Positions 9,234-56,008 of a DNA stretch of 56,008 nt are shown here, piece after piece. The stretch lies in the NCBI GenBank assembly GCA_947623625.1, contig CANQHD010000002.1, positions 1 through 56,008 of the forward strand, read 5' to 3'. A program made the position numbers and the translations under genes. The notes beneath the pieces were generated by a model, which saw only the letters and a program-made list of their open reading frames with translations, was not told the DNA's origin and did no database searches. Numbering within the stretch: position 1 is the stretch's first letter; each line of letters starts with the position of its first letter. The stretch is from an uncultured Bacilli bacterium (GTDB taxonomy: Bacteria > Bacillota_I > Bacilli_A > RF39 > UBA660).

Positions 9234-10986
9234 AAAAGGGGCTGTAATGAAATGAAATAATTTCATTGAGCCCTTTTTTGTTTTGGAAAAGGGAATTTTT
9301 CCTCTTTTAAATTAGGTGGAATATTCCAGTAATTACTTTTTATTTTTTTGCCATCTAATGAAGAAAAATATTTTCTTATATTAGCTCCTAAACACATAAG
9401 CATAATTTCACAAGATACTTTCTCTAAACCTCGTCTTCTTATTCTTGTGTATTGCATATTTTGTTTTATTTGTCCAAAAGTACCTTCTACTTGAATACTT
9501 CTGTTTATTCTTATTTCTATTCCTTTAGGGCTTTGTAAATTTTTTCTAGCTTCTTCTTTTAATAATTCATATTCTGGTATCAATTCATATAATCTATAAT
9601 CGTAATTTTTGTTTTTTAGATTTTTCTTACAGATATAAGAATAATTACAACTACTACAGCCTACAAATTTGTACAACTTACTATTTTTATGTCTTGGATG
9701 CCTGATACCATAAAATGATACCTCTTCTCCAATACAAGTGTTTAGACACATAACTCCATCATCAAAAGTATAAAATAATTGTGGTTTTTTTCCATCTGCT
9801 TCCCCACTCCATGTAGAATTTTTAACATAATTTTTTATATTGTGCTCTTTCATATATTGGTAATTTTCATACATTCCATATCCTGAATCTGCACATTCAT
9901 TTTTAGGATATTCTTCATAATATTTATAATATAAGTCATTCATTGGGATAAAAGTATGATAATCATTTCTATCTTGAAACACTCCATACATTGTTATTAT
10001 TCCGCTTGATACCATTACTTGTATATTATATCCAGCATGAAAATCATGACTGGTTTTTGAATAATAATCTTTCTTTAATACCATGGCTGTGGCATCTTTA
10101 TCTGTTTTGTAATAAGAATTCCTATTTTCACCACATATTGCTTCTTTTTCTTCATATTCTAATAATTTAATTAGATATTGACAAGCTGATTTATAGTTTT
10201 TTTGTTCTTTAGTTAATCGTTTACCTTTACCAATGGGAATAGAATTAATATCTATATTTTCTTTTACAACATATTCTTTTATGAATTCATTAAATTGAAA
10301 TGATTTAATCAAAGTTTTATTTTTAAATTCTATATTCATTTTTAATAATAATTCTTTAATTTTTGTGTCCAATTTTTTATGATAAGTTGTCGGTTTCCAT
10401 ACAAATTTATACTTATTAGCATTTGCTTCTATTTTAGTCCCATCATTATACTGGGTATCTATATCAATATTAAGTTCTTCTATAATTGCCTTTGTAATAC
10501 TAGTAAATATTTCATATTGATATGGTAAAATATACTTATTAATACAATCTTTTATTACATTATGACTTGGCTGTTCTTGTTCCATTAAATAAATAACTCT
10601 TAAATCAAATTGGCATAAATATTCTATTTCTCGTAAACTACCCTTAAATTTTGAAAAACAATAAATAATAGTTGCCACCAAATTAAATGGATTATATCCT
10701 TTTCTTCCTACTTTTCTTTGAACTTTTTTTATTATAGATCCTATTTCAGATTTATTCAAAATTTTAAGAAATTTATCAATTTTATCAAATTCCTCACAAC
10801 ATTTATTTGAGGGGACTATGAAAATTGGTCTTTTTGTGTTAAAATATTCCATGTGATACAACTTCTTTCAACAATTAAATTGTATCACAAAACTGCCTTG
10901 AAGTCTTACGATTTCAAGGCTTTTATAATTTTAGAAAAAAAGAAAAGAACTGAATGAATTTATTTTATTTCATTACAGCCCCTTTT
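9234..10986 (-). mobile_element. IS1182-family insertion sequence, about 1.75 kb
   Basis: Terminal inverted repeats AAAAGGGGCTGTAATGAAAT... at 9234-9270 and 10950-10986 match at about 34 of 37 positions by hand alignment. They enclose a single DDE transposase ORF. No target-site duplication is evident. Confidence 0.75.
9263..10861 (-). CDS. IS1182-family DDE transposase
   Basis: N-terminal GRKGYNPFNL (InsH-N-like), NDGTKIEANANKY, ADSGYG, and C-terminal IQVEGTFGQIKQN..R.RRRGL. The likely true start is ATG at 10850-10852 (MEYFN). Confidence 0.8.
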   Translation of the reverse strand: MYHMEYFNTKRPIFIVPSNKCCEEFDKIDKFLKILNKSEIGSIIKKVQRKVGRKGYNPFNLVATIIYCFSKFKGSLREIEYLCQFDLRVIYLMEQEQPSHNVIKDCINKYILPYQYEIFTSITKAIIEELNIDIDTQYNDGTKIEANANKYKFVWKPTTYHKKLDTKIKELLLKMNIEFKNKTLIKSFQFNEFIKEYVVKENIDINSIPIGKGKRLTKEQKNYKSACQYLIKLLEYEEKEAICGENRNSYYKTDKDATAMVLKKDYYSKTSHDFHAGYNIQVMVSSGIITMYGVFQDRNDYHTFIPMNDLYYKYYEEYPKNECADSGYGMYENYQYMKEHNIKNYVKNSTWSGEADGKKPQLFYTFDDGVMCLNTCIGEEVSFYGIRHPRHKNSKLYKFVGCSSCNYSYICKKNLKNKNYDYRLYELIPEYELLKEEARKNLQSPKGIEIRINRSIQVEGTFGQIKQNMQYTRIRRRGLEKVSCEIMLMCLGANIRKYFSSLDGKKIKSNYWNIPPNLKEEKFPFPKQKRAQ

Positions 10987-11101
10987 TTTATTATCCACAT
11001 CTAGAAAATTTTACTTTTCTGTTATTACCTACCTATTCTTATCAATTTAGTTATCATAATCAAAATATTATAAATCATTATTTGCACAGGTGGCTTTTTA
11101 G

Positions 11102-11440
11102 ATTATAATAAAGCTATTATTATACATTGATGAGCAACTATGCAATAATAGTATCCAATTGTATTATTGTACTAAGTGTAATAAAAGATTTACTGCTACG
11201 ACAAATACAATCTTTGAGAATCATAAAATATCAATAACAGAATGGATTGACTTTCTATTAGATTTGTTTAACTATGGTAGTACAACTTTGATTTCTAAAG
11301 TAAACAAAAACAGTATGAATACTTCAATTATTGGTTACATAAAGTTTTTTTAGTGCTAAGACATTGGCAAAATAGCATAGTACTGAAAGACAATGTTTAA
11401 ATGTTTTATTCAGTAATAAAAAAACATAGATAATTAGTGA
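11102..11440 (+). pseudogene. remnant of an IS1595-family (ISXO2-like) transposase N-terminus
   Basis: YYCTKCNKRFTATTNTIFENHKISITEWIDFL matches the zinc-ribbon/HTH N-terminus pattern (C..C.k.Fs.ttgTif...k.pl..W). It has no proper start, the first Cys pair is lost, the ORF stops at 11353, and similarity seems to continue in another frame (..LKDNV..). Confidence 0.45.
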
Positions 11441-11492
11441 AGAAACTTAAATTAGTTTATTAAAATTCTAGATTTTTAATACCTTATATTAC

Positions 11493-12206
11493 CTATTCAT
11501 CATCTTCTAAAAAAAAGTTAACCATTCTTTCATAATTATCTTGACTATTTAAAAAAGTATCTATTAAATAGCCTTTTTCACCATTTGTTTGATATTCTTT
11601 AATACCTCTTATATAAAAATCTTTATTTCTATCTTCAATAAAAAACGGCATTATATCATTATATAGGCATTCTCTAAACATTATCATTCTTCCTATACGA
11701 CCATTTCCATCTTGAAATGGATGAATACTCTCAAATCGAACATGGAATTCAATAATATCTTCTAAAGTTTTTTTAGTTATTTTATCATACCACTCTAATA
11801 AATCATTCATATCATTTGCTACATTACTTGGCAAAGATGTTACAAAATTTCCAACAAAATTTTTTTTCTTTTTATATTCTCCAACATTAAACCATTCTTT
11901 TTCACTATCAGTTAAGGTTCCATCCTTTAAAATGAAATGGAATTTCTTTATCATATCACAAGAGAGTTTATCATCAATAGTATCTAGCATATATTTAAAT
12001 AAAGTAAAATGATTTTTTGTTTCCATGGCATCTTTTAATACGATAACTTTATCACTACTTGTTAGAATTGTTCCTGTATCATAAATGCTTGCTGTTTCAT
12101 CAGGTGTTATTGTGGAACCTTCTATGTAATTCGTATTATATGCAAAATCTAACTGAGTTTTATGATATAGATTACCAGACAAATTCATATTTTTTTGTTC
12201 TACCAA
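11493..12206 (-). CDS. Fic family protein (class II, AMPylation-competent motif)
   Basis: Fic motif HPFQDGNGRIGR (HxFx[DE]GNGRxxR) and an N-terminal inhibitory-helix motif TNYIEG ([ST]xxxE[GN]). The start is uncertain; see findings. Confidence 0.85.
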   Translation of the reverse strand: MVEQKNMNLSGNLYHKTQLDFAYNTNYIEGSTITPDETASIYDTGTILTSSDKVIVLKDAMETKNHFTLFKYMLDTIDDKLSCDMIKKFHFILKDGTLTDSEKEWFNVGEYKKKKNFVGNFVTSLPSNVANDMNDLLEWYDKITKKTLEDIIEFHVRFESIHPFQDGNGRIGRMIMFRECLYNDIMPFFIEDRNKDFYIRGIKEYQTNGEKGYLIDTFLNSQDNYERMVNFFLEDDE

Positions 12207-34446: not shown

Positions 34447-34466
34447 ATTATTTCCCGGGAAATAAT
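34447..34466. promoter_or_regulatory. Noc-binding-site (NBS) palindrome
   Basis: ATTATTTCCCGGGAAATAAT is a perfect 20-bp palindrome containing the B. subtilis NBS core ATTTCCCGGGAAAT. Confidence 0.6.
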
Positions 34467-37113: not shown

Positions 37114-37992
37114 CTACTTATTCAATTGCATAATTTCTAAGATACGATTTAAGTCATTTTTATTTGTAAAAGTAATAACAAGTTTGTTGTTTTTAACTTT
37201 TACTTTTGTTCCAAGTTTTTCTTCTAAAGTGTTCTCAACATATGTATATTCACCATCAATTGTTGCTTTTCGTTTCATCTCTCTTCTTCTTGGATATTTC
37301 TCTTTTGTTGTTAATTCTTCTAATGCTCGAACACTCAAGTCTTCATCAACGATTTTTTCAGCAAGTCGTTTAATTTGTTCTCTATCACTTAATTTACTCA
37401 AGACACGAGCATGTCCCATTGAAATTTGATTTGTTGTAATAAAATCTTTGACTTCTTCTGGAAGATTGAGAAGTCCTATCATATTTGTAATATAGCTTCT
37501 ACTTTTTCCAAGGCGATGTGCTAGCATATCTTGTGTCAGTGAAAGAGAATCTTGTAGTTTTTTATAAGCAACGGCTTCTTCTAATGGGGATAAATTTTCA
37601 CGTTGTAAATTTTCAAGAATGGCAATTTCCATCATTGCTTCATCTGTAAAATCTTTAATAATCGCTGGAATCGTTGTAAGTCCTGCTAAACGAGAGGCTT
37701 TAACTCTTCGCTCTCCTGCAACGATATCATAGCCTTTAATACTTTTCTTCGCAATAATTGGCTGTAAAACACCATGTTCCTTGATAGAAATTGCAAGTTC
37801 TTCTAGTTTTGCTTCATCAAATGTTTTCCTTGGTTGATAAGGATTCGCACGTAATTCTGCAAGAGGTAACTCTACAATCTCATTTTTTGGAGTTTCTTTG
37901 ACAATTTTCTCTTCTAAATTGTTATAATCAATTGGTTCATTATGGAATAATTCTTCTAAGCCTTTTCCAAGTGCTCTTCTTTTAGTTTCCAT
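37114..37992 (-). CDS. parB: chromosome partitioning protein ParB/Spo0J
   Basis: RALGKGLEELF, NPYQPRK, GERRVKAS, HTH GKSRSYITNMIGLL, and C-terminal LGTKVKV...LNRILE. Confidence 0.92.
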   Translation of the reverse strand: METKRRALGKGLEELFHNEPIDYNNLEEKIVKETPKNEIVELPLAELRANPYQPRKTFDEAKLEELAISIKEHGVLQPIIAKKSIKGYDIVAGERRVKASRLAGLTTIPAIIKDFTDEAMMEIAILENLQRENLSPLEEAVAYKKLQDSLSLTQDMLAHRLGKSRSYITNMIGLLNLPEEVKDFITTNQISMGHARVLSKLSDREQIKRLAEKIVDEDLSVRALEELTTKEKYPRRREMKRKATIDGEYTYVENTLEEKLGTKVKVKNNKLVITFTNKNDLNRILEIMQLNK

Positions 37993-38767
37993 TGCGATCA
38001 ATCACTTCCTTTGCTAAATTAATATAAGCTTCACTGCCTCTACTTTTAGGATCATATGCGATAATTGGTTCTCCATGAGATGGAGCTTCTGTTAAACGAA
38101 TCAAACGGGGTATGATGGTATTATAAACTTTTTCTTTAAAAAACTTTCGAATATCTTCTACAACTTCAAATCCTAAATTCGTTCTTGAATCTAGCATTGT
38201 CAGTAGTACGCCTTCAATATCTAAACTTGGATTGAGTTGTTTTTGAGCAAGACGGATTGTATTTAACAATTGCATAATTCCCTCTAAAGCAAAGAATTCA
38301 CATTGAACAGGAATAATCACTGAGTTGCTTGCTGTTAAAGCGTTTGTTGTAATAAGTCCTAATGATGGGGGACAATCTATAATAATAAAATCAAAAAAAT
38401 CTTTGACTGTGCTTAAATGATTTTTTAACTGTGCTCCCTTTGCAAATCCAGGTTCACTTTGACTTTTTTCCAATAACTCAATATCAAGCCCTGCTAAATT
38501 AATGGTGGCAGGAATGACATAAAGCTGTTTATATTTTGTATGAATCATTGCCTCTTTAATTTGACACTTTCCAACTAAAACGTCATAAATGCTTAAGGAG
38601 ATGTCTCCTTTATTTATTCCTATTCCTGTTGTTGTATTTCCTTGAGGATCTAAATCGACTAAAAGGACTTTTTTTCCAAGAATAGCCAAGCTTGCAGAAA
38701 GATTGATACTGGTTGTAGTTTTCCCAACTCCACCTTTTTGGTTCACTAATGAAATAACTTTTCCCAT
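37982..38767 (-). CDS. parA: ParA/Soj ATPase
   Basis: Deviant Walker A NQKGGVGKTTT. Confidence 0.93.
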   Translation of the reverse strand: MGKVISLVNQKGGVGKTTTSINLSASLAILGKKVLLVDLDPQGNTTTGIGINKGDISLSIYDVLVGKCQIKEAMIHTKYKQLYVIPATINLAGLDIELLEKSQSEPGFAKGAQLKNHLSTVKDFFDFIIIDCPPSLGLITTNALTASNSVIIPVQCEFFALEGIMQLLNTIRLAQKQLNPSLDIEGVLLTMLDSRTNLGFEVVEDIRKFFKEKVYNTIIPRLIRLTEAPSHGEPIIAYDPKSRGSEAYINLAKEVIDRNGN

Positions 38768-38869: not shown

Positions 38870-40156
38870 TTAGTCCTTCATAATTCTTATTACAATCTGA
38901 TAGTTATTATCAAAATCCATTTCATCCATTTCTATTTTTACGCCTGCTGCTTTAAGATCCATAACACTTGCTTTTACTTTATCTATAGAAGATTGTAATG
39001 AATTTTCACTCTTTGGAATGAAATTTGTAGGATCTACAGATGCAGTTTGATTTTCAGAATTTTGAATTAACGGAATTTGGAAAGGATCTGGTGATGATGG
39101 CTCCTTAGGTTTTTCTGGAACTGGTTGAATATCAGGAACTTTAAAATACTCATCCGTCATTGTATGAGGTGTTGTTGCCGTTGAAGAAGGACTTTGTTTT
39201 TCTACTTCTGGATTCATATTAAAGAATTTAAAAGATTGCTGACTTCCTTCGCTTTTCTCATTTTGACCACTTACTTGTAACAAATTATCTAAATCTGCTG
39301 GTTTTTTGCTATCAAAATTAATATCTTGAGCCGTTTGTCTTAAAGCATTTATATCTGGAGGAATAATCGCATTACTAACTCCAGCATCTGCATCCGGATC
39401 TTCCTCATCTAAATCATAATTAATAAATTTAGGCGGTGTACTATAGTCAATTGCACCATCTTCTTTTGATGATGAAACCGCTTCTTGAATCGAAGGAGCA
39501 GCTATTGTATTTTGAAGAGGAATTTCTAATCCATTTTTCTCTTCCTTAGGGGCAACTTTATCAGGATTAATTGTCTTTTCAAGTTCTCTTACCGTCATTT
39601 TTTCATCCATAATTCTCTTGAGCATTTTCTTTTGTTCTTCTGGATCAGATAACCCTAAAAGACTTCGTGCATGTCTTTCTGAAATTTGTTCTTTTAATAC
39701 AGCATCTTGCACCACTTCAGGTAAAGTCAAAAGTCTTAATTTATTCGCAATAGCTCCCTGACTTTTTCCCATTGTTTTAGCAAGACCTTCTTGTGTCATT
39801 TGATCGAGCTCTAGTATTTTTTGATATGTTCTTGCTTCTTCTATTGGGTTCAAGTTTTTTCTTTGTAAATTTTCAAGAAGAGCTACTTTAGATGTTTCTT
39901 TATCATCTAAATTTCGTATAATAGCGGGAATTTTTGTTAGTCCTGCTAACGCACTTGCTTTATAGCGTCGCTCTCCTGCAATGATTTCATATTTGTTTCC
40001 AATATTTCGAACAATAATTGGTTGAATAACACCATGTTCTTTAATAGAAACAGCTAACTCTTTCAAAGCTTTTTCATCAAATATTTCTCTTGGTTGAAAC
40101 CGATTTGGAATAATATCATCTAAATGTAATTGTACGACTTCATTTTCCTGAGGCAT
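38870..40156 (-). CDS. noc: Noc-like ParB-family protein with a long internal low-complexity linker
   Basis: ParB N-domain (IPNRFQPR, GERRYKAS). The HTH is GKSQGAIANKLRLL...ISERHAR. The C-terminus AGVKIEMDEMDFDNNYQIVIRIMKD resembles B. subtilis Noc. Position between rsmG and parAB is as in Bacilli. Start taken at the ATG after GAAGGA. Confidence 0.75.
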   Translation of the reverse strand: MPQENEVVQLHLDDIIPNRFQPREIFDEKALKELAVSIKEHGVIQPIIVRNIGNKYEIIAGERRYKASALAGLTKIPAIIRNLDDKETSKVALLENLQRKNLNPIEEARTYQKILELDQMTQEGLAKTMGKSQGAIANKLRLLTLPEVVQDAVLKEQISERHARSLLGLSDPEEQKKMLKRIMDEKMTVRELEKTINPDKVAPKEEKNGLEIPLQNTIAAPSIQEAVSSSKEDGAIDYSTPPKFINYDLDEEDPDADAGVSNAIIPPDINALRQTAQDINFDSKKPADLDNLLQVSGQNEKSEGSQQSFKFFNMNPEVEKQSPSSTATTPHTMTDEYFKVPDIQPVPEKPKEPSSPDPFQIPLIQNSENQTASVDPTNFIPKSENSLQSSIDKVKASVMDLKAAGVKIEMDEMDFDNNYQIVIRIMKD

Positions 40157-46298: not shown

Positions 46299-46506
46299 TT
46301 TTCCACATCTTGTCAATTCTATTTTAAAAGTTTTCCACAATATCCACAGGCTGTGGAAAACTTTTATCCACATGTGGAAAACAAAAATGTGGAAATTGTG
46401 GAAAACTCAATTTTTTCTTTATTTTATCGACATTTAAGCTGTGGAAAACTCTGTGGATAAATTGTGGAAAACTTTTTTTTCGTATTTTAGAGTTCCTTTT
46501 TCCACA
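46299..46506. promoter_or_regulatory. oriC part 1: cluster of 12 DnaA boxes upstream of dnaA
   Basis: TT(A/T)TCCACA-type 9-mers start at 46299, 46331, 46340, 46364 (perfect) and 46498. TGTGGA(A/T)A(A/T)-type 9-mers start at 46352, 46373, 46388, 46397, 46440, 46452 (perfect) and 46463. Confidence 0.9.
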
Positions 46507-47936: not shown

Positions 47937-48078
47937 TGTGGAAAAAATAAAGTTTTCCACAAAGTTTTCCACAGGCAAAAAAACGTGATACAATAGATAA
48001 ATAAAGGGAAAAAGTGAGTTTTCCACAGTTTCCACAGGTAATAATAATAATATATATATAAGAAAGAAGGAATATATA
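47937..48078. promoter_or_regulatory. oriC part 2: 5 DnaA boxes, candidate DnaA-trios and AT-rich unwinding region
   Basis: Boxes at 47937-47945, 47953-47961, 47965-47973, and the tandem pair 48019-48027 and 48028-48036. These are followed by GG, (TAA)4 at 48039-48050 and a (TA)n run. Confidence 0.8.
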
Positions 48079-49349: not shown

Positions 49350-49826
49350 ATGAAAATATCGGCTTATGAAATTAATGATGGAACTTATGCTATTTATGCA
49401 AATAATCAATCGGGTTCCAAAATATTAGAGGAAAACGAGACTTATGAAATTGAACAAAATCCATCTCGTATTATTGATTATGGATGTAATTATTTTGGAA
49501 GTAGTTATAAAGGACGTAGAGATGGTTCAATTTTGATTTTAAACAGTCGCTATAAAGTTCCAATTGTTATTGAGGACAGTCAAAATATGATTTTTTTTCC
49601 AACAGGAAATAAAGATGATATTCATTGTAGTTGGATAGCGCTTAATAAGGTAAAAAGTTATGCACCTTGTGGAAAAAAAACGCGAGTGGAGTTTTTAAAT
49701 GGGAAAACGTTAACTTTTGATGTTTCTTTTCGCTCTTTTCAAAATCAAGTCCTAAGAGCAAGTCGACTGGATTCGATTATAACGAATCGTAAAAGAAAAT
49801 CAGGACCAAATGAGAAAAAAGATTAG
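49350..49826 (+). CDS. comK: ComK-family protein
   Basis: IIDYGCNYFGSSYKGRRDGS...YKVPIVI...MIFFPT...CSWI...FLNGKTL...SFRSFQNQVLRASRL aligns by eye with B. subtilis ComK (CRFFGSSYAGRKAGT...KPPIMV...IFLFPT...CGWI...FSNGKTM...SYNSFENQVYRTAWL). Confidence 0.8.
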   Translation: MKISAYEINDGTYAIYANNQSGSKILEENETYEIEQNPSRIIDYGCNYFGSSYKGRRDGSILILNSRYKVPIVIEDSQNMIFFPTGNKDDIHCSWIALNKVKSYAPCGKKTRVEFLNGKTLTFDVSFRSFQNQVLRASRLDSIITNRKRKSGPNEKKD

Positions 49827-49858: not shown

Positions 49859-49931
49859 TGTGGATAAATAAAGAGGTGTTAGAATAAGAGAAAAATAGAG
49901 ATTTCATTTTTTCCACAATAGGTGTGGAAAA
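49859..49931. promoter_or_regulatory. three DnaA boxes between comK and recF
   Basis: TGTGGATAA (49859-49867, perfect), TTTTCCACA (49909-49917) and TGTGGAAAA (49923-49931). Confidence 0.6.
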
Positions 49932-53182: not shown

Positions 53183-55636
53183 ATGGATAGATTAGAAAAA
53201 AATAACATTGTAAAAGAAGTCAAGGATTCCTTTCTAGAATATTCAATGAGTGTCATTGTCGCTCGTGCATTACCAGATTTAAGAGATGGATTAAAACCAG
53301 TTCATCGTCGTATTTTATATTCAATGTATGAATCTGGATATACTCCAGATAAGCCTCATAAGAAAAGTGCAAGAATTGTTGGAGATGTTATGGGTAAATA
53401 TCATCCACATGGAGATTCTAGTATTTATGAAGCAATGGTTCGAATGGCACAAGATTTTTCTTATCGTTATATGCTAGTAGATGGTCATGGAAATTTTGGT
53501 AATATCGAGGGTTATGGTGCTGCAGCCATGCGTTATACTGAATCAAGACTTTCTAAGATATCGCTTGAATTACTGAGAAATATTAATAAGAATACTGTTA
53601 ATTTTGTTCCAAACTTTGATGAGTCAGAAAAAGAACCTGAAATTTTACCATCTAGATTTCCAAATATTTTAGTGAATGGAACAACAGGTATTGCTGTTGG
53701 TATGGCAACCAATATTCCACCACACAATTTAGGAGAAGTTATTGATGGCTGTGTAGCATACATTGATAATCCAGATATTGATTTGGATGGATTAATGAAA
53801 TATATTAAGGGACCTGATTTTCCAACAGGTGCCACAATTTTAGGAAATAGTGGAATTAGAAAAGCTTATGAAACGGGTCGCGGAAGTATTACAATTCGCA
53901 GTAAGGCACAAATAGAGGAAAAAAATGGAAGACAGTATATTATTGTGGATGAAGTTCCATACGGAATAAATACTTTAGAGTTAAAAAATAAGGTTGCAGA
54001 GCTTGTTCATAATAAAGTAATCGAAGGAATTGCAGATTACCATTCTGATTTAAAAGAAGGTATCAAAATAACGATTACTTTAAAGAAAGATGCCAATGCT
54101 CAAGTTGTTTTAAATAAACTATATAAGCATACGGCTTTTCAAACAACATATGGAATTATCTTTTTAATGCTGGATCAAGGTGTTCCGAAAACATTAGGAT
54201 TAAAAGATATTATTGTAAAATATATTGATTTTCAAAAAGAAATAATTATTCGAAGAACAAAATTTGACTTGGAAAATGCTGAAAAAAGAGTTCATATTTT
54301 AGAAGGATTAAAGATTGCACTGGATCATATTGATGCAGTAATAAAATTAATTCGTGGTTCAAAAACAGATGAAGAAGCAAGATTAGGCTTAATGAATCAA
54401 TTTGGTTTAACAGAAGCACAGTCTAATGCTATTTTAGAGATGAGACTTCGTAGATTAACGGGATTAGAAAGAGAAAAAATCGAAAATGAGTTGAACGAAT
54501 TGTTAAAATTAATCGCAGAATTAAAAGATATTTTAAGCAGTGATGAAAAAGTATTAAATGTTATTAGAACAGAATTATTGGAAATAAAAGGAAAATATGC
54601 TGATGAGCGTCGAACGAATATTGATATGACAGCGATTGAATATATTGAAGATGAATCCTTAATTCCAGTTGAAGATATTATTGTTACATTAACGAATAGA
54701 GGTTATATTAAGCGTTTAAGAGCAGATACTTATCGTTCTCAAAATCGTGGTGGTGTAGGTATAAAAGGAATGGCAACGAATGAAGAAGATTTTGTAGAAC
54801 AAATTATTTCAATGAAGACTCATGATTATCTTTTGTTCTTTTCTAATAGAGGTAAGGTATATCGTCTTAAAGGTTATGAAATTCCAGAATTTTCTCGGCA
54901 ATCAAAAGGTTTACCTATAGTTAATTTATTATCTTTAGAGAAAAATGAGTACATTAGTTCGATGGTTGAGTTAAATTCAAATGAAGATGTATATAAATAT
55001 TTAATGTTTACAACGAAAAATGGCTTGGTTAAACGTACACCAATTGAAGAATTTAGTAATATTAGAAAAAGTGGAAAAATATCAATCATAATTAAGGAAA
55101 ATGATGAGTTAATTTCCGTTAGAAAAACAACTGGAGAAGAAGAAATTATTATTGGTGGAAGCAATGGAAGAATGGTTCGTTTCCCTGAAACAGAGATTAG
55201 ATCGATGGGTAGAGGAACTTCTGGAGTAAAAGGAATGGAATTGGTCGGTGCAAAAGTAGTTGGTGCAGAAGTTATCCACAAGGGCGAAGAAGTTTTAATT
55301 GTAACGGAAAAAGGATATGGAAAGAAAACAGATATTGAGGAATATCGATTAACACATCGTGGAAGTAAGGGTGTTAAAGCACTAAATTTAACAGATAAAA
55401 ATGGAAATATGGTTAGTTTAAAACGAATTATAGCTGTGGATAATTATGATTTATTGATTGTTACAGATAATGGTGTAATTATGAGAATGCCATTAGAACA
55501 AATTTCTACTTTAAAAAGAGCGACTCAAGGTGTAAGATTAATTAATCTAAAGGATAATCAGAAAGTTGCTACAGTTGCAATTGTGGAAAAAGAATCTGAA
55601 ATGTCTTCAGAGGAAAATATAGAAGAAAGTAATTAA
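53183..55636 (+). CDS. gyrA: DNA gyrase subunit A
   Basis: [29 protein letters not shown] and the C-terminal beta-pinwheel repeats. Confidence 0.97.
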
Positions 55637-55654
55637 ATTTTTCTTCTTTTTTTT
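55621..55654 (+). terminator. gyrA terminator
   Basis: AGAAGAAA-11 nt-TTTCTTCT followed by T7. The stem is AT-rich and overlaps the stop codon. Confidence 0.45.
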
Positions 55655-55742
55655 GGTAAATTTTTGAAAAAATATATTACTTTATATTATTAGTATTTAA
55701 AAATTAAAATATTGAATTTCTTGTGGAAAACTAAATAAATAT

Positions 55743-56008
55743 AAAAAATGGAGAGAAGTAGAAAAAATATTTCCCGGGAAATAATTGAGAAAGAAATAAC
55801 ATATCAAATATGAAAAAAATAAGGAAAAGTAGAAAAAATATTTCCCGGGAAATAATCGAGAAAGAAGAAGAACATCAAATATAGAAAAAATGGGGAGAAG
55901 TAGAAAAAAATATTTCCCGGGAAATAATCGTGGGAAGAAGTAATATCTCAAATATAAGAAAATGGAGAAAAGTAGAAAAAATATTTTCCGGGAAATAATT
56001 GAGAAAGA
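55743..56008. repeat. tandem ~71-bp repeat (3.7 or more units, cut by the window end), each unit carrying an NBS-type palindrome
   Basis: TATTTCCCGGGAAATA occurs at 55768-55783, 55839-55854 and 55911-55926. TATTTTCCGGGAAATA occurs at 55982-55997. Spacing is 71/72/71 bp. The flanking parts of each unit are also similar (AAGTAGAAAAAA...; ...ATCAAATAT...). Confidence 0.9.

Follow-up and report, generated by a model that had tools for sequence, protein, structure and literature searches.

Noc is the textbook example of a ParB duplicate that acquired a new DNA site as well as a new function; scattered binding sites and a membrane helix are its hallmarks. What role might a tandem array of Noc-binding sites (NBSs) play when it stands directly behind gyrA, close to a replication origin? 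The question is posed by the first 56,008 bp of contig CANQHD010000002.1 (assembly GCA_947623625.1, an uncultured Bacilli bacterium of the RF39 lineage), here called the window, which covers the oriC region of a Firmicute of ~30% GC and breaks off inside such an array. From its sequence and a comparison with related genomes, the array is likely a selected, origin-proximal cluster of high-affinity nucleation sites for a Noc-type cytidine triphosphate (CTP) clamp encoded in the same window at 38870-40156.

Between 55200 and 56008 the sequence reads as four head-to-tail units, each with a 16-mer of the TATTTCCCGGGAAATA type. Reading and pattern search agree with the original prediction on the number of ~71-bp units and on three perfect palindromes followed by one with a C-to-T change. 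Tandem Repeats Finder gave a period of 71 bp with 82% matches, and a repeat search placed successive NBSs 71, 71 and 72 bp apart, i.e., at least four sites within 272 bp. By chance, 0.02 matches to the 16-mer with up to two mismatches are expected per window; the five that are present, among them a solitary perfect NBS at 34449-34464 that the original prediction had missed, were reached in none of 100 shuffles of the window. The repeat comprises the whole unit, in support of the suggestion that the array arose by unit duplication.

The array starts ~100 bp past the gyrA stop codon and the window end falls in unit 4, making four a minimum copy number. Exact look-ups with the window's GyrA and GyrB and a metagenome scan for its array unit returned no match. 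Contigs of the same species were found through matches to the ComK-like protein and RecF; only one of them, L071 from another sample, reaches gyrA, and it also stops inside the array. The array is therefore cut short by an assembly break, and more copies may follow past the window end, as had been suspected. The unit is absent from the rest of the window, IMG/VR contained no such arrays, and blastn against plasmid and phage collections gave no match, so that a generic repeat family scattered independently of Noc, as well as a mobile element or a plasmid or phage centromere, could be discarded. Two further candidates were rejected. An array of clustered regularly interspaced short palindromic repeats (CRISPR) would have unique spacers, whereas here the inter-palindrome sequence repeats at 82% together with the rest of the unit. 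Tiny open reading frames in the units (MERSRKNISREIIEKEITYQI and others) are broken by a frame change in unit 3, and their first ATG is missing in the same-species contig.

The palindrome itself is the canonical Bacillus subtilis NBS, as had been proposed: its 16 bp are identical to the core of the duplex crystallized with Noc, GGATATTTCCCGGGAAATATCC (PMC7383237). All window sites match the NBS pattern ATTTCCCGGGAAAT, three perfectly and one with a single mismatch in the array, and the solitary copy perfectly. The difference from parS, TGTTTCACGTGAAACA, is confined to positions 2/15 and 7/10, again as predicted, and parS (pattern TGTTNCACGTGAAACA) was not found anywhere in the window at up to three mismatches, not even inside parB. 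B. subtilis NBSs are single sites spread around the chromosome (PMC8429893). The array departs from this dispersed layout, as do related arrays, in which up to 13 NBSs occupy the same locus.

A candidate binder is encoded on the other side of oriC, where two ParB-family genes flank parA. Four positions set the specificity of such proteins: ParB has R173, T179, A184 and G201, Noc has Q173, K179, K184 and R201, and one lysine, at 179 or 184, suffices for NBS specificity (PMC7383237, Jalal 2020). The 430-residue protein reads GKSQGAIANKLRLLTL...ERHAR, corresponding to Q173, K179, T184 and R201 within the stretch GKSQ..ANK..LLT..ERHAR, and is of the NBS type despite T184 because a lysine at either position is enough. 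The adjacent ParB reads GKSRSYITNMIGLLNL...MGHAR, i.e., R, M, N and G, which is the parS type. The Q, K and R residues are kept in all 16 aligned Noc-like homologues, and the best matches of the 430-residue protein in the PDB (phmmer) are the Noc structures 7NG0/7NFU at 217 bits, then 7OL9, with ParB/Spo0J at ~177 bits. By these sequence features it is a Noc-type, putatively NBS-specific paralogue next to a putatively parS-specific ParB, upholding the earlier annotation as a Noc paralogue. Its gene lies between rsmG and parA, as noc does in B. subtilis, and its C-terminal domain resembles that of B. subtilis Noc.

Across the 16 aligned homologues, the N-terminal and helix-turn-helix (HTH) domains are near-invariant, and the FQPR, GERR (GERRYKAS) and ENLQR motifs in them are invariant. 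The CTP-binding and clamp-closing motifs are thus present, and CTPase activity is predicted. Two other features set the protein apart. The ParA-binding motif, defined as LG(K/R)GL (PMC12704722), is found in the adjacent ParB as ALGKGLEELF and is missing from the Noc-like protein. The second feature is its short N-terminus: the ParB_N domain begins after only ~12 residues, the first possible start has an in-frame stop nine codons upstream, and a ribosome-binding site precedes the ATG at 40156, so an N-terminal amphipathic helix is missing; all 16 aligned homologues have the same start point and the same short N-terminus. This helix (residues 1-10 to 15) is reported to be conserved in all Noc homologues examined and is needed for function (PMC4331003; PMC8429893). 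The tethering of origin-proximal DNA to the membrane, one of the roles originally suggested, is weakened by its absence from the window's protein and all 15 aligned homologues.

Noc-like homologues of 430-520 residues number more than 100 in gut metagenomes; the only source name attached to one is Candidatus Onthousia, Bacilli incertae sedis. Between the HTH and C-terminal domains the 16 aligned ones have a long linker (~190 residues, about 200-385, in the window's protein) with the invariant short motifs IDYSTPPKFI and (F/Y)KF and, in most homologues, NNPFAxNPIF; the window's protein has IDYSTPPKFIDY, FKFF and NNPFAxNPIF among its linker motifs. AlphaFold predicts residues 1-196 and 387-425 as folded and the linker as disordered, with a predicted local distance difference test (pLDDT) score below 50 over most of 201-383. 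A membrane helix relocated to the linker was rejected on this prediction, in which FKFF is non-helical. The linker motifs look like partner-binding peptides.

Among 185,579 species-representative genomes, a search for two exact NBS 14-mers 45-75 bp apart, with neither location nor parS as a criterion, gave 70 loci in 61 genomes. Fifty-five of these genomes are low-GC (23-34%) metagenome-assembled genomes (MAGs) labelled as uncultured gut Bacilli, Mollicutes or Erysipelotrichaceae, in which 60 of 62 loci (53 of the 55 genomes) lie in the gyrA/ffs/tadA/dnaX neighbourhood; the remaining two adjoin mnmG, on the other flank of oriC. In 41 loci gyrA is directly upstream of the sites, and its product is 57-87% identical to the window's GyrA. 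Related genomes carrying this noc thus show clustering at the same locus, and not the lack of it that would have counted against the original prediction. An Rfam search placed the signal recognition particle (SRP) RNA gene, ffs, beside the array in 15 of 18 tested loci and ribosomal RNA (rRNA) in none. This disposes of an rRNA-operon promoter array, which the gyrA-rrnO gene order of B. subtilis and recurrent ~1.6-kb gaps had brought up.

As a separate observation, six genomes of higher GC content (45-66%; loci L012, L016, L034, L054, L056, L064, L067 and L070) also have exact NBS pairs, spaced 61-77 bp, with no parS nearby. Among them are Clostridium sp. CAG:138, Ruminococcaceae UMGS942, a Limnochordia MAG and one MAG labelled as a proteobacterium.

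The architecture of the low-GC loci is seen intact on a complete long-read chromosome (OZ006981.1, L026), where gyrB, gyrA, ffs and tadA are followed by thirteen 83-bp units and then dnaX; its 13 NBSs are the largest number per array. Elsewhere, many arrays are located at the end of a contig, and in several genomes one half of the array is on one contig and the other half on another. Aligned on their NBSs, the units of most relatives reveal a second palindrome, GTTTCACGTGAAAC, which is parS. At least three NBS/parS alternations within 60 bp are present in 26 low-GC genomes, and parS occurs in the fetched loci of 44 genomes. Alternation is strict in L026 (13 NBSs and 12 parS sites, with 36 bp from NBS to parS and 46 bp from parS to NBS), L021 (13 and 12) and L020 (9 and 9), as well as in L017, L006, L036, L025, L004, L048, L059 and L061, and the distance between parS and NBS in alternating arrays is 26-49 bp. 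Other loci keep the two site types in blocks: downstream of gyrA, L009 (2163-3046) has four NBSs at 74 bp, a gap of 121 bp and at least 13 parS sites at 43 bp up to the contig end, and in L052, L055, L058, L068, L010, L019 and L038 four to nine parS sites precede an NBS pair. NBS-only arrays are seen in the window, L051, L039 and L041. For L051, the nearest NBS-only relative (GyrA 86% identical), the other end of the array is on L005, where two parS sites follow the last NBS units, then ffs and tadA.

A single contig holds the array together with parA, parB and the noc-like gene in two relatives, one NBS-only (CANQYK) and one alternating (CASDWO), and in both ~21 kb around noc-parAB contains neither NBS nor parS. 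Since the window lacks parS and these surroundings lack both sites, the visible sites of either kind are concentrated at the array locus. In L010, L015, L053, L058, L068, L052 and L038, an NBS pair recurs ~1.6-1.7 kb away from a parS cluster or from a further NBS; the gap may correspond to one conserved gene, possibly dnaX, bracketed by sites.

Conservation follows the sites and not the units. Between species, conservation is limited to the 16-mer and an A-rich stretch to its left (columns -5 to +14 at >=0.95), and the linkers are unrelated. Within 20 arrays, 7.5% of linker positions deviate from the unit consensus, against 1.3% for NBSs and 2.3% for parS (Fisher p = 1e-24 and 1e-14), so that sites change 3-6 times less than linkers. 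Sites that alone are kept between species, and that change less than their surroundings within arrays, argue for a selected multi-copy site.

These comparisons also bear on two finer claims of the original prediction. A phasing of about seven helical turns is not conserved: the window's 71-72 bp correspond to 6.8 turns, and the period varies between 58 and 84 bp from one species to another. Periods cluster near 62-64, 73-76, 79 and 82-84 bp (Rayleigh p ~0.013, with the same value for 10, 10.5 and 11 bp and with non-independent samples). A second conserved unit element, made up of the blocks AAGTAGAAAAAA and ATCAAATAT, is kept only within the window's species, and the second element of the relatives is parS. 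Although the ATCAAATAT block sits where L045 has parS, it matches parS at only 7 of 14 positions, which gives it no value as evidence. We also rejected an origin of the alternating units in a parS-only array whose every second site was switched, as NBS-to-parS and parS-to-NBS linkers are no more alike than shuffles (z -1.3 to 2.5).

The array is origin-proximal by two measures. DnaA-box clusters and a GC-skew minimum at ~44-46 kb put it 7.7-9.4 kb from oriC, in agreement with the ~8 kb first estimated, and it lies 13-17 kb from noc-parAB on the opposite side of oriC.

From the identity, clustering, synteny and conservation of the sites and from the features of the protein, we infer how such a locus could act through binding, CTP-dependent loading and sliding. 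One Noc dimer would load per 16-bp palindrome, close around the DNA with CTP and then slide outward; with many sites in tandem, loading would be faster and Noc could pack densely on the DNA ~8-9 kb from oriC. In the clade as a whole, the array would form one half of a composite centromere, as parS sites for canonical ParB share the locus: they alternate one-for-one with NBSs, form a neighbouring block or are few in number and confined to the far end. ParB and Noc, as paralogous clamps, would then load next to each other, 26-49 bp apart, and both spread along this origin-proximal stretch. ParB recruits SMC, and would presumably do so here. The Noc-like protein, for its part, would recruit a partner to the centromere region instead of acting in genome-wide nucleoid occlusion. 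Since it lacks both the membrane helix and the ParA-binding motif and has invariant motifs in a disordered linker, it most likely serves as a centromere adaptor. In its full form, this would make the centromere of these uncultured gut Bacilli with small genomes a composite tandem array that loads ParB on parS and a helix-less, long-linker Noc on NBS, with Noc as a centromere-specific adaptor acting through its linker motifs and the window species as a variant in which the NBS part was expanded alone; we regard this extended model as tentative and somewhat less probable than its negation. Of the roles listed in the original prediction, the centromere-like element is nevertheless the one best supported, on comparative grounds.

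Several points weigh against a selected cluster of nucleation sites and its centromere role. For the window, the composite centromere is an argument by analogy with relatives, as its four visible units contain no parS. The NBS distribution in the source genome is seen over 56 kb only, where a single site lies away from the array. NBS pairs were the criterion of the scan, whose counts describe NBS-pair loci and not the frequency of arrays in the clade. Of the two mismatch figures for sites, the one for NBSs is slightly biased, with units anchored on NBSs at up to three mismatches (the parS figure is unbiased), and concerted evolution inside arrays can mimic some conservation. Finally, position 184 is T, S or A in the Noc-like proteins and not the K typical of Noc.

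The features underlying this analysis are collected in Table 1. In the window, rnpA, yidC, jag, mnmE, mnmG and rsmG, followed by the ParB paralogue, parA and parB, are on the minus strand, and dnaA, dnaN, a comK-like gene, recF, gyrB and gyrA are on the plus strand.

Table 1. Features of the array, the par genes and the origin in the window (positions in bp; a dot marks features without strand).
Feature	Position	Strand	Basis and remarks
Tandem array	55737..56008	.	Tandem Repeats Finder and repeat spacing; 71-72 bp units, 3.8 copies visible, ends with the window
NBS copy 1, TATTTCCCGGGAAATA	55768..55783	.	Pattern search; perfect; equals the core of the crystallized NBS
NBS copy 2, TATTTCCCGGGAAATA	55839..55854	.	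Pattern search; perfect
NBS copy 3, TATTTCCCGGGAAATA	55911..55926	.	Pattern search; perfect
NBS copy 4, TATTTTCCGGGAAATA	55982..55997	.	Pattern search; single C-to-T change
Solitary NBS	34449..34464	.	Pattern search; perfect; between ychF and abgT, across oriC and ~12 kb from it
Noc-type ParB paralogue, presumed binder, 430 residues	38870..40156	-	ParB_N and HTH_ParB (Pfam), Q/K/T/R residues, GERR and ENLQR CTP motifs, Noc-like C-terminal dimerisation domain
Canonical ParB, 295 residues	37114..38001	-	parS-type residues (R173, G201) and N-terminal LGKGL ParA-binding motif
parA (soj) ATPase	37982..38767	-	Pfam
rsmG	40284-40922		Gene order rsmG, noc-like, parA, parB
gyrA	53183..55636	+	Pfam; conserved upstream neighbour of the array, synteny in 41 loci
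DnaA-box cluster upstream of dnaA (oriC)	46299..46506	.	Box search and GC-skew minimum; reference for distances
Second oriC DnaA-box cluster	47937-48027		Box search
Perfect DnaA box, TTTTCCACA	55722..55730	-	A few bases before unit 1; last of four boxes at 55272-55730

Two side observations concern the origin region as a whole. Between dnaN and recF, where the usual Firmicutes gene is the S4-like yaaA, the window encodes a ComK-family protein (PF06338, E = 1.5e-38; 49350-49826, plus strand) that has conserved synteny in relatives; three DnaA boxes lie behind it, at 49859-49931. A DDE transposase gene (9263-10861) and a Fic-domain gene (11493-12206) lie ~36 kb from oriC, where GC skew and gene orientation change sign, which suggests an insertion sequence-associated inversion or rearrangement boundary at 9263-12206 (minus strand).

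Among other explanations for the array, classical nucleoid occlusion fares best. An ordinary Noc would tether DNA to the membrane and block the Z-ring, and the array would concentrate this activity near the origin. The site and the specificity residues are indeed those of Noc, the C-terminal domain is like that of B. subtilis Noc, and the invariant (F/Y)KF of the linker, FKFF in the window, bears a presumed, loose resemblance to SFSRFF in the N-terminal membrane helix of B. subtilis Noc. Yet the N-terminal helix, which is required for function (PMC4331003), is absent, with the in-frame stop upstream and all 16 homologues alike; AlphaFold predicts no helix at FKFF within the disordered linker; and sites confined to one locus would leave the bulk of the nucleoid unprotected. 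We therefore consider nucleoid occlusion unlikely.

A neutral satellite, in which slippage or unequal crossing-over multiplied a unit that happened to contain an NBS, with no function for the copy number, would account for a repeat that covers the whole unit and not the palindrome alone, for periods and copy numbers that vary freely between species, and for assemblies that break in the arrays. It does not readily explain why 53 genomes with GyrA only 57-87% identical to the window's should have arrays at one locus even though linkers are unrelated and periods differ, or why the sites change 3-6 times less than the linkers, and a strict 1:1 alternation with a second functional palindrome is hard to obtain by slippage alone. 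This origin is still less probable than nucleoid occlusion.

KorB of RK2 is a model for operator action by a ParB-family protein. By the same logic, a ParB-family or other protein bound to the palindromes could regulate the SRP RNA gene, tadA or dnaX, or end read-through from gyrA. The arrays are intergenic and adjoin the SRP RNA gene in most loci, and ParB-family regulators that use CTP are known (PMC12704722). The position relative to ffs, however, is not constant: arrays are upstream of it in L002, L006, L017, L020 and L048, directly downstream in L021, and between tadA and dnaX in L026. Promoter-like sites in the window's array were no more numerous than in shuffles, a terminator was not found there, and a dozen operators would be excessive for a single promoter, all of which makes an operator array very improbable.

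Lastly, the units might titrate DnaA in the control of replication, with the NBSs incidental or cooperating. The window has 31 DnaA boxes (TTWTCCACA) against 1.9 expected, and outside the two oriC clusters a group of four runs up to the array, three of them within the final 370 bp of gyrA and the fourth, a perfect box, abutting the array. DnaA-box-like 8- or 9-mers (TGTGGAAAA or GTGGAAAA) occur in units of L051 (1-725), L005 (2508-2695), L018, L045/L057, L004 and L026, with 26 observed over all arrays against ~1 expected, and Noc is reported to affect replication initiation in Staphylococcus aureus (PMC5540599). Because such boxes are found in only 4-6 of 34 arrays, with none in the window's units within one mismatch, where the AAGTAGAAAA block is ambiguous as a homologue of the L051 box, DnaA boxes were rejected as a general unit component and titration is the least probable explanation, to be given hardly any weight.

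With a selected cluster of nucleation sites as the preferred reading, the clade keeps the Noc site and the Noc residues and yet has an origin-proximal tandem array, interleaved with parS in 26 genomes, and a protein without a membrane helix. If binding holds true, the locus would represent a second, centromere-associated working mode for Noc-type clamps. It would also offer a natural system whose two CTP clamps, loading 26-49 bp apart, have to bypass or obstruct one another, and it might preserve an intermediate stage of the split of Noc from ParB. On the practical side, the arrays break short-read assemblies beside oriC in many gut MAGs.

Among known systems, the centromere sopC of the F plasmid is a tandem array of 12 repeats of 43 bp, and SopB, a ParB-family protein, binds a 16-bp inverted repeat in each of them. 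It shares with the arrays the head-to-tail units with one palindromic ParB-family site each and a similar copy number (4 to at least 13), and the parS array of L009 has the same 43-bp period as sopC. Unlike sopC, which is plasmid-borne, next to its operon, needed for ParA-driven segregation and built from one site type, the array is chromosomal, 13-17 kb from the par genes across oriC, and has a presumed binder without a ParA-binding motif; its relatives alternate two site types. Known chromosomal parS clusters are mostly spread over kilobases. Those near the origins of B. subtilis and Caulobacter (reviewed in PMC7333895) likewise provide several loading sites close to oriC in genomes with a parS-type ParB, but consist of parS only, whereas the window's array has none and relatives alternate parS and NBS 26-49 bp apart. 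The synthetic plasmid pSG4929 (Wu 2009), used in PMC4331003, carries eight NBSs and nucleates a large Noc complex; its sites are grouped as in the array, in a laboratory construct and not in a natural one. The original prediction knew of no description of tandem NBSs, and in the literature searched, whose coverage is thin on subscription journals so that absence is no proof, we found no published natural NBS array, parS/NBS alternation or natural equivalent of pSG4929.

The closest relative in kind remains the Noc/NBS system of B. subtilis (Wu 2009; Adams 2015; Jalal 2020, 2021), which has the same 16-bp site, the same succession of ParB_N, HTH and C-terminal domains, the specificity residues and the GERR/ENLQR motifs. 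Like the window's protein, B. subtilis Noc has no ParA-binding motif and is encoded between rsmG and parA. It differs in its scattered single sites, its N-terminal helix and its short linker, in place of which the window presents a tandem array and a helix-less protein with a linker of ~190 residues.

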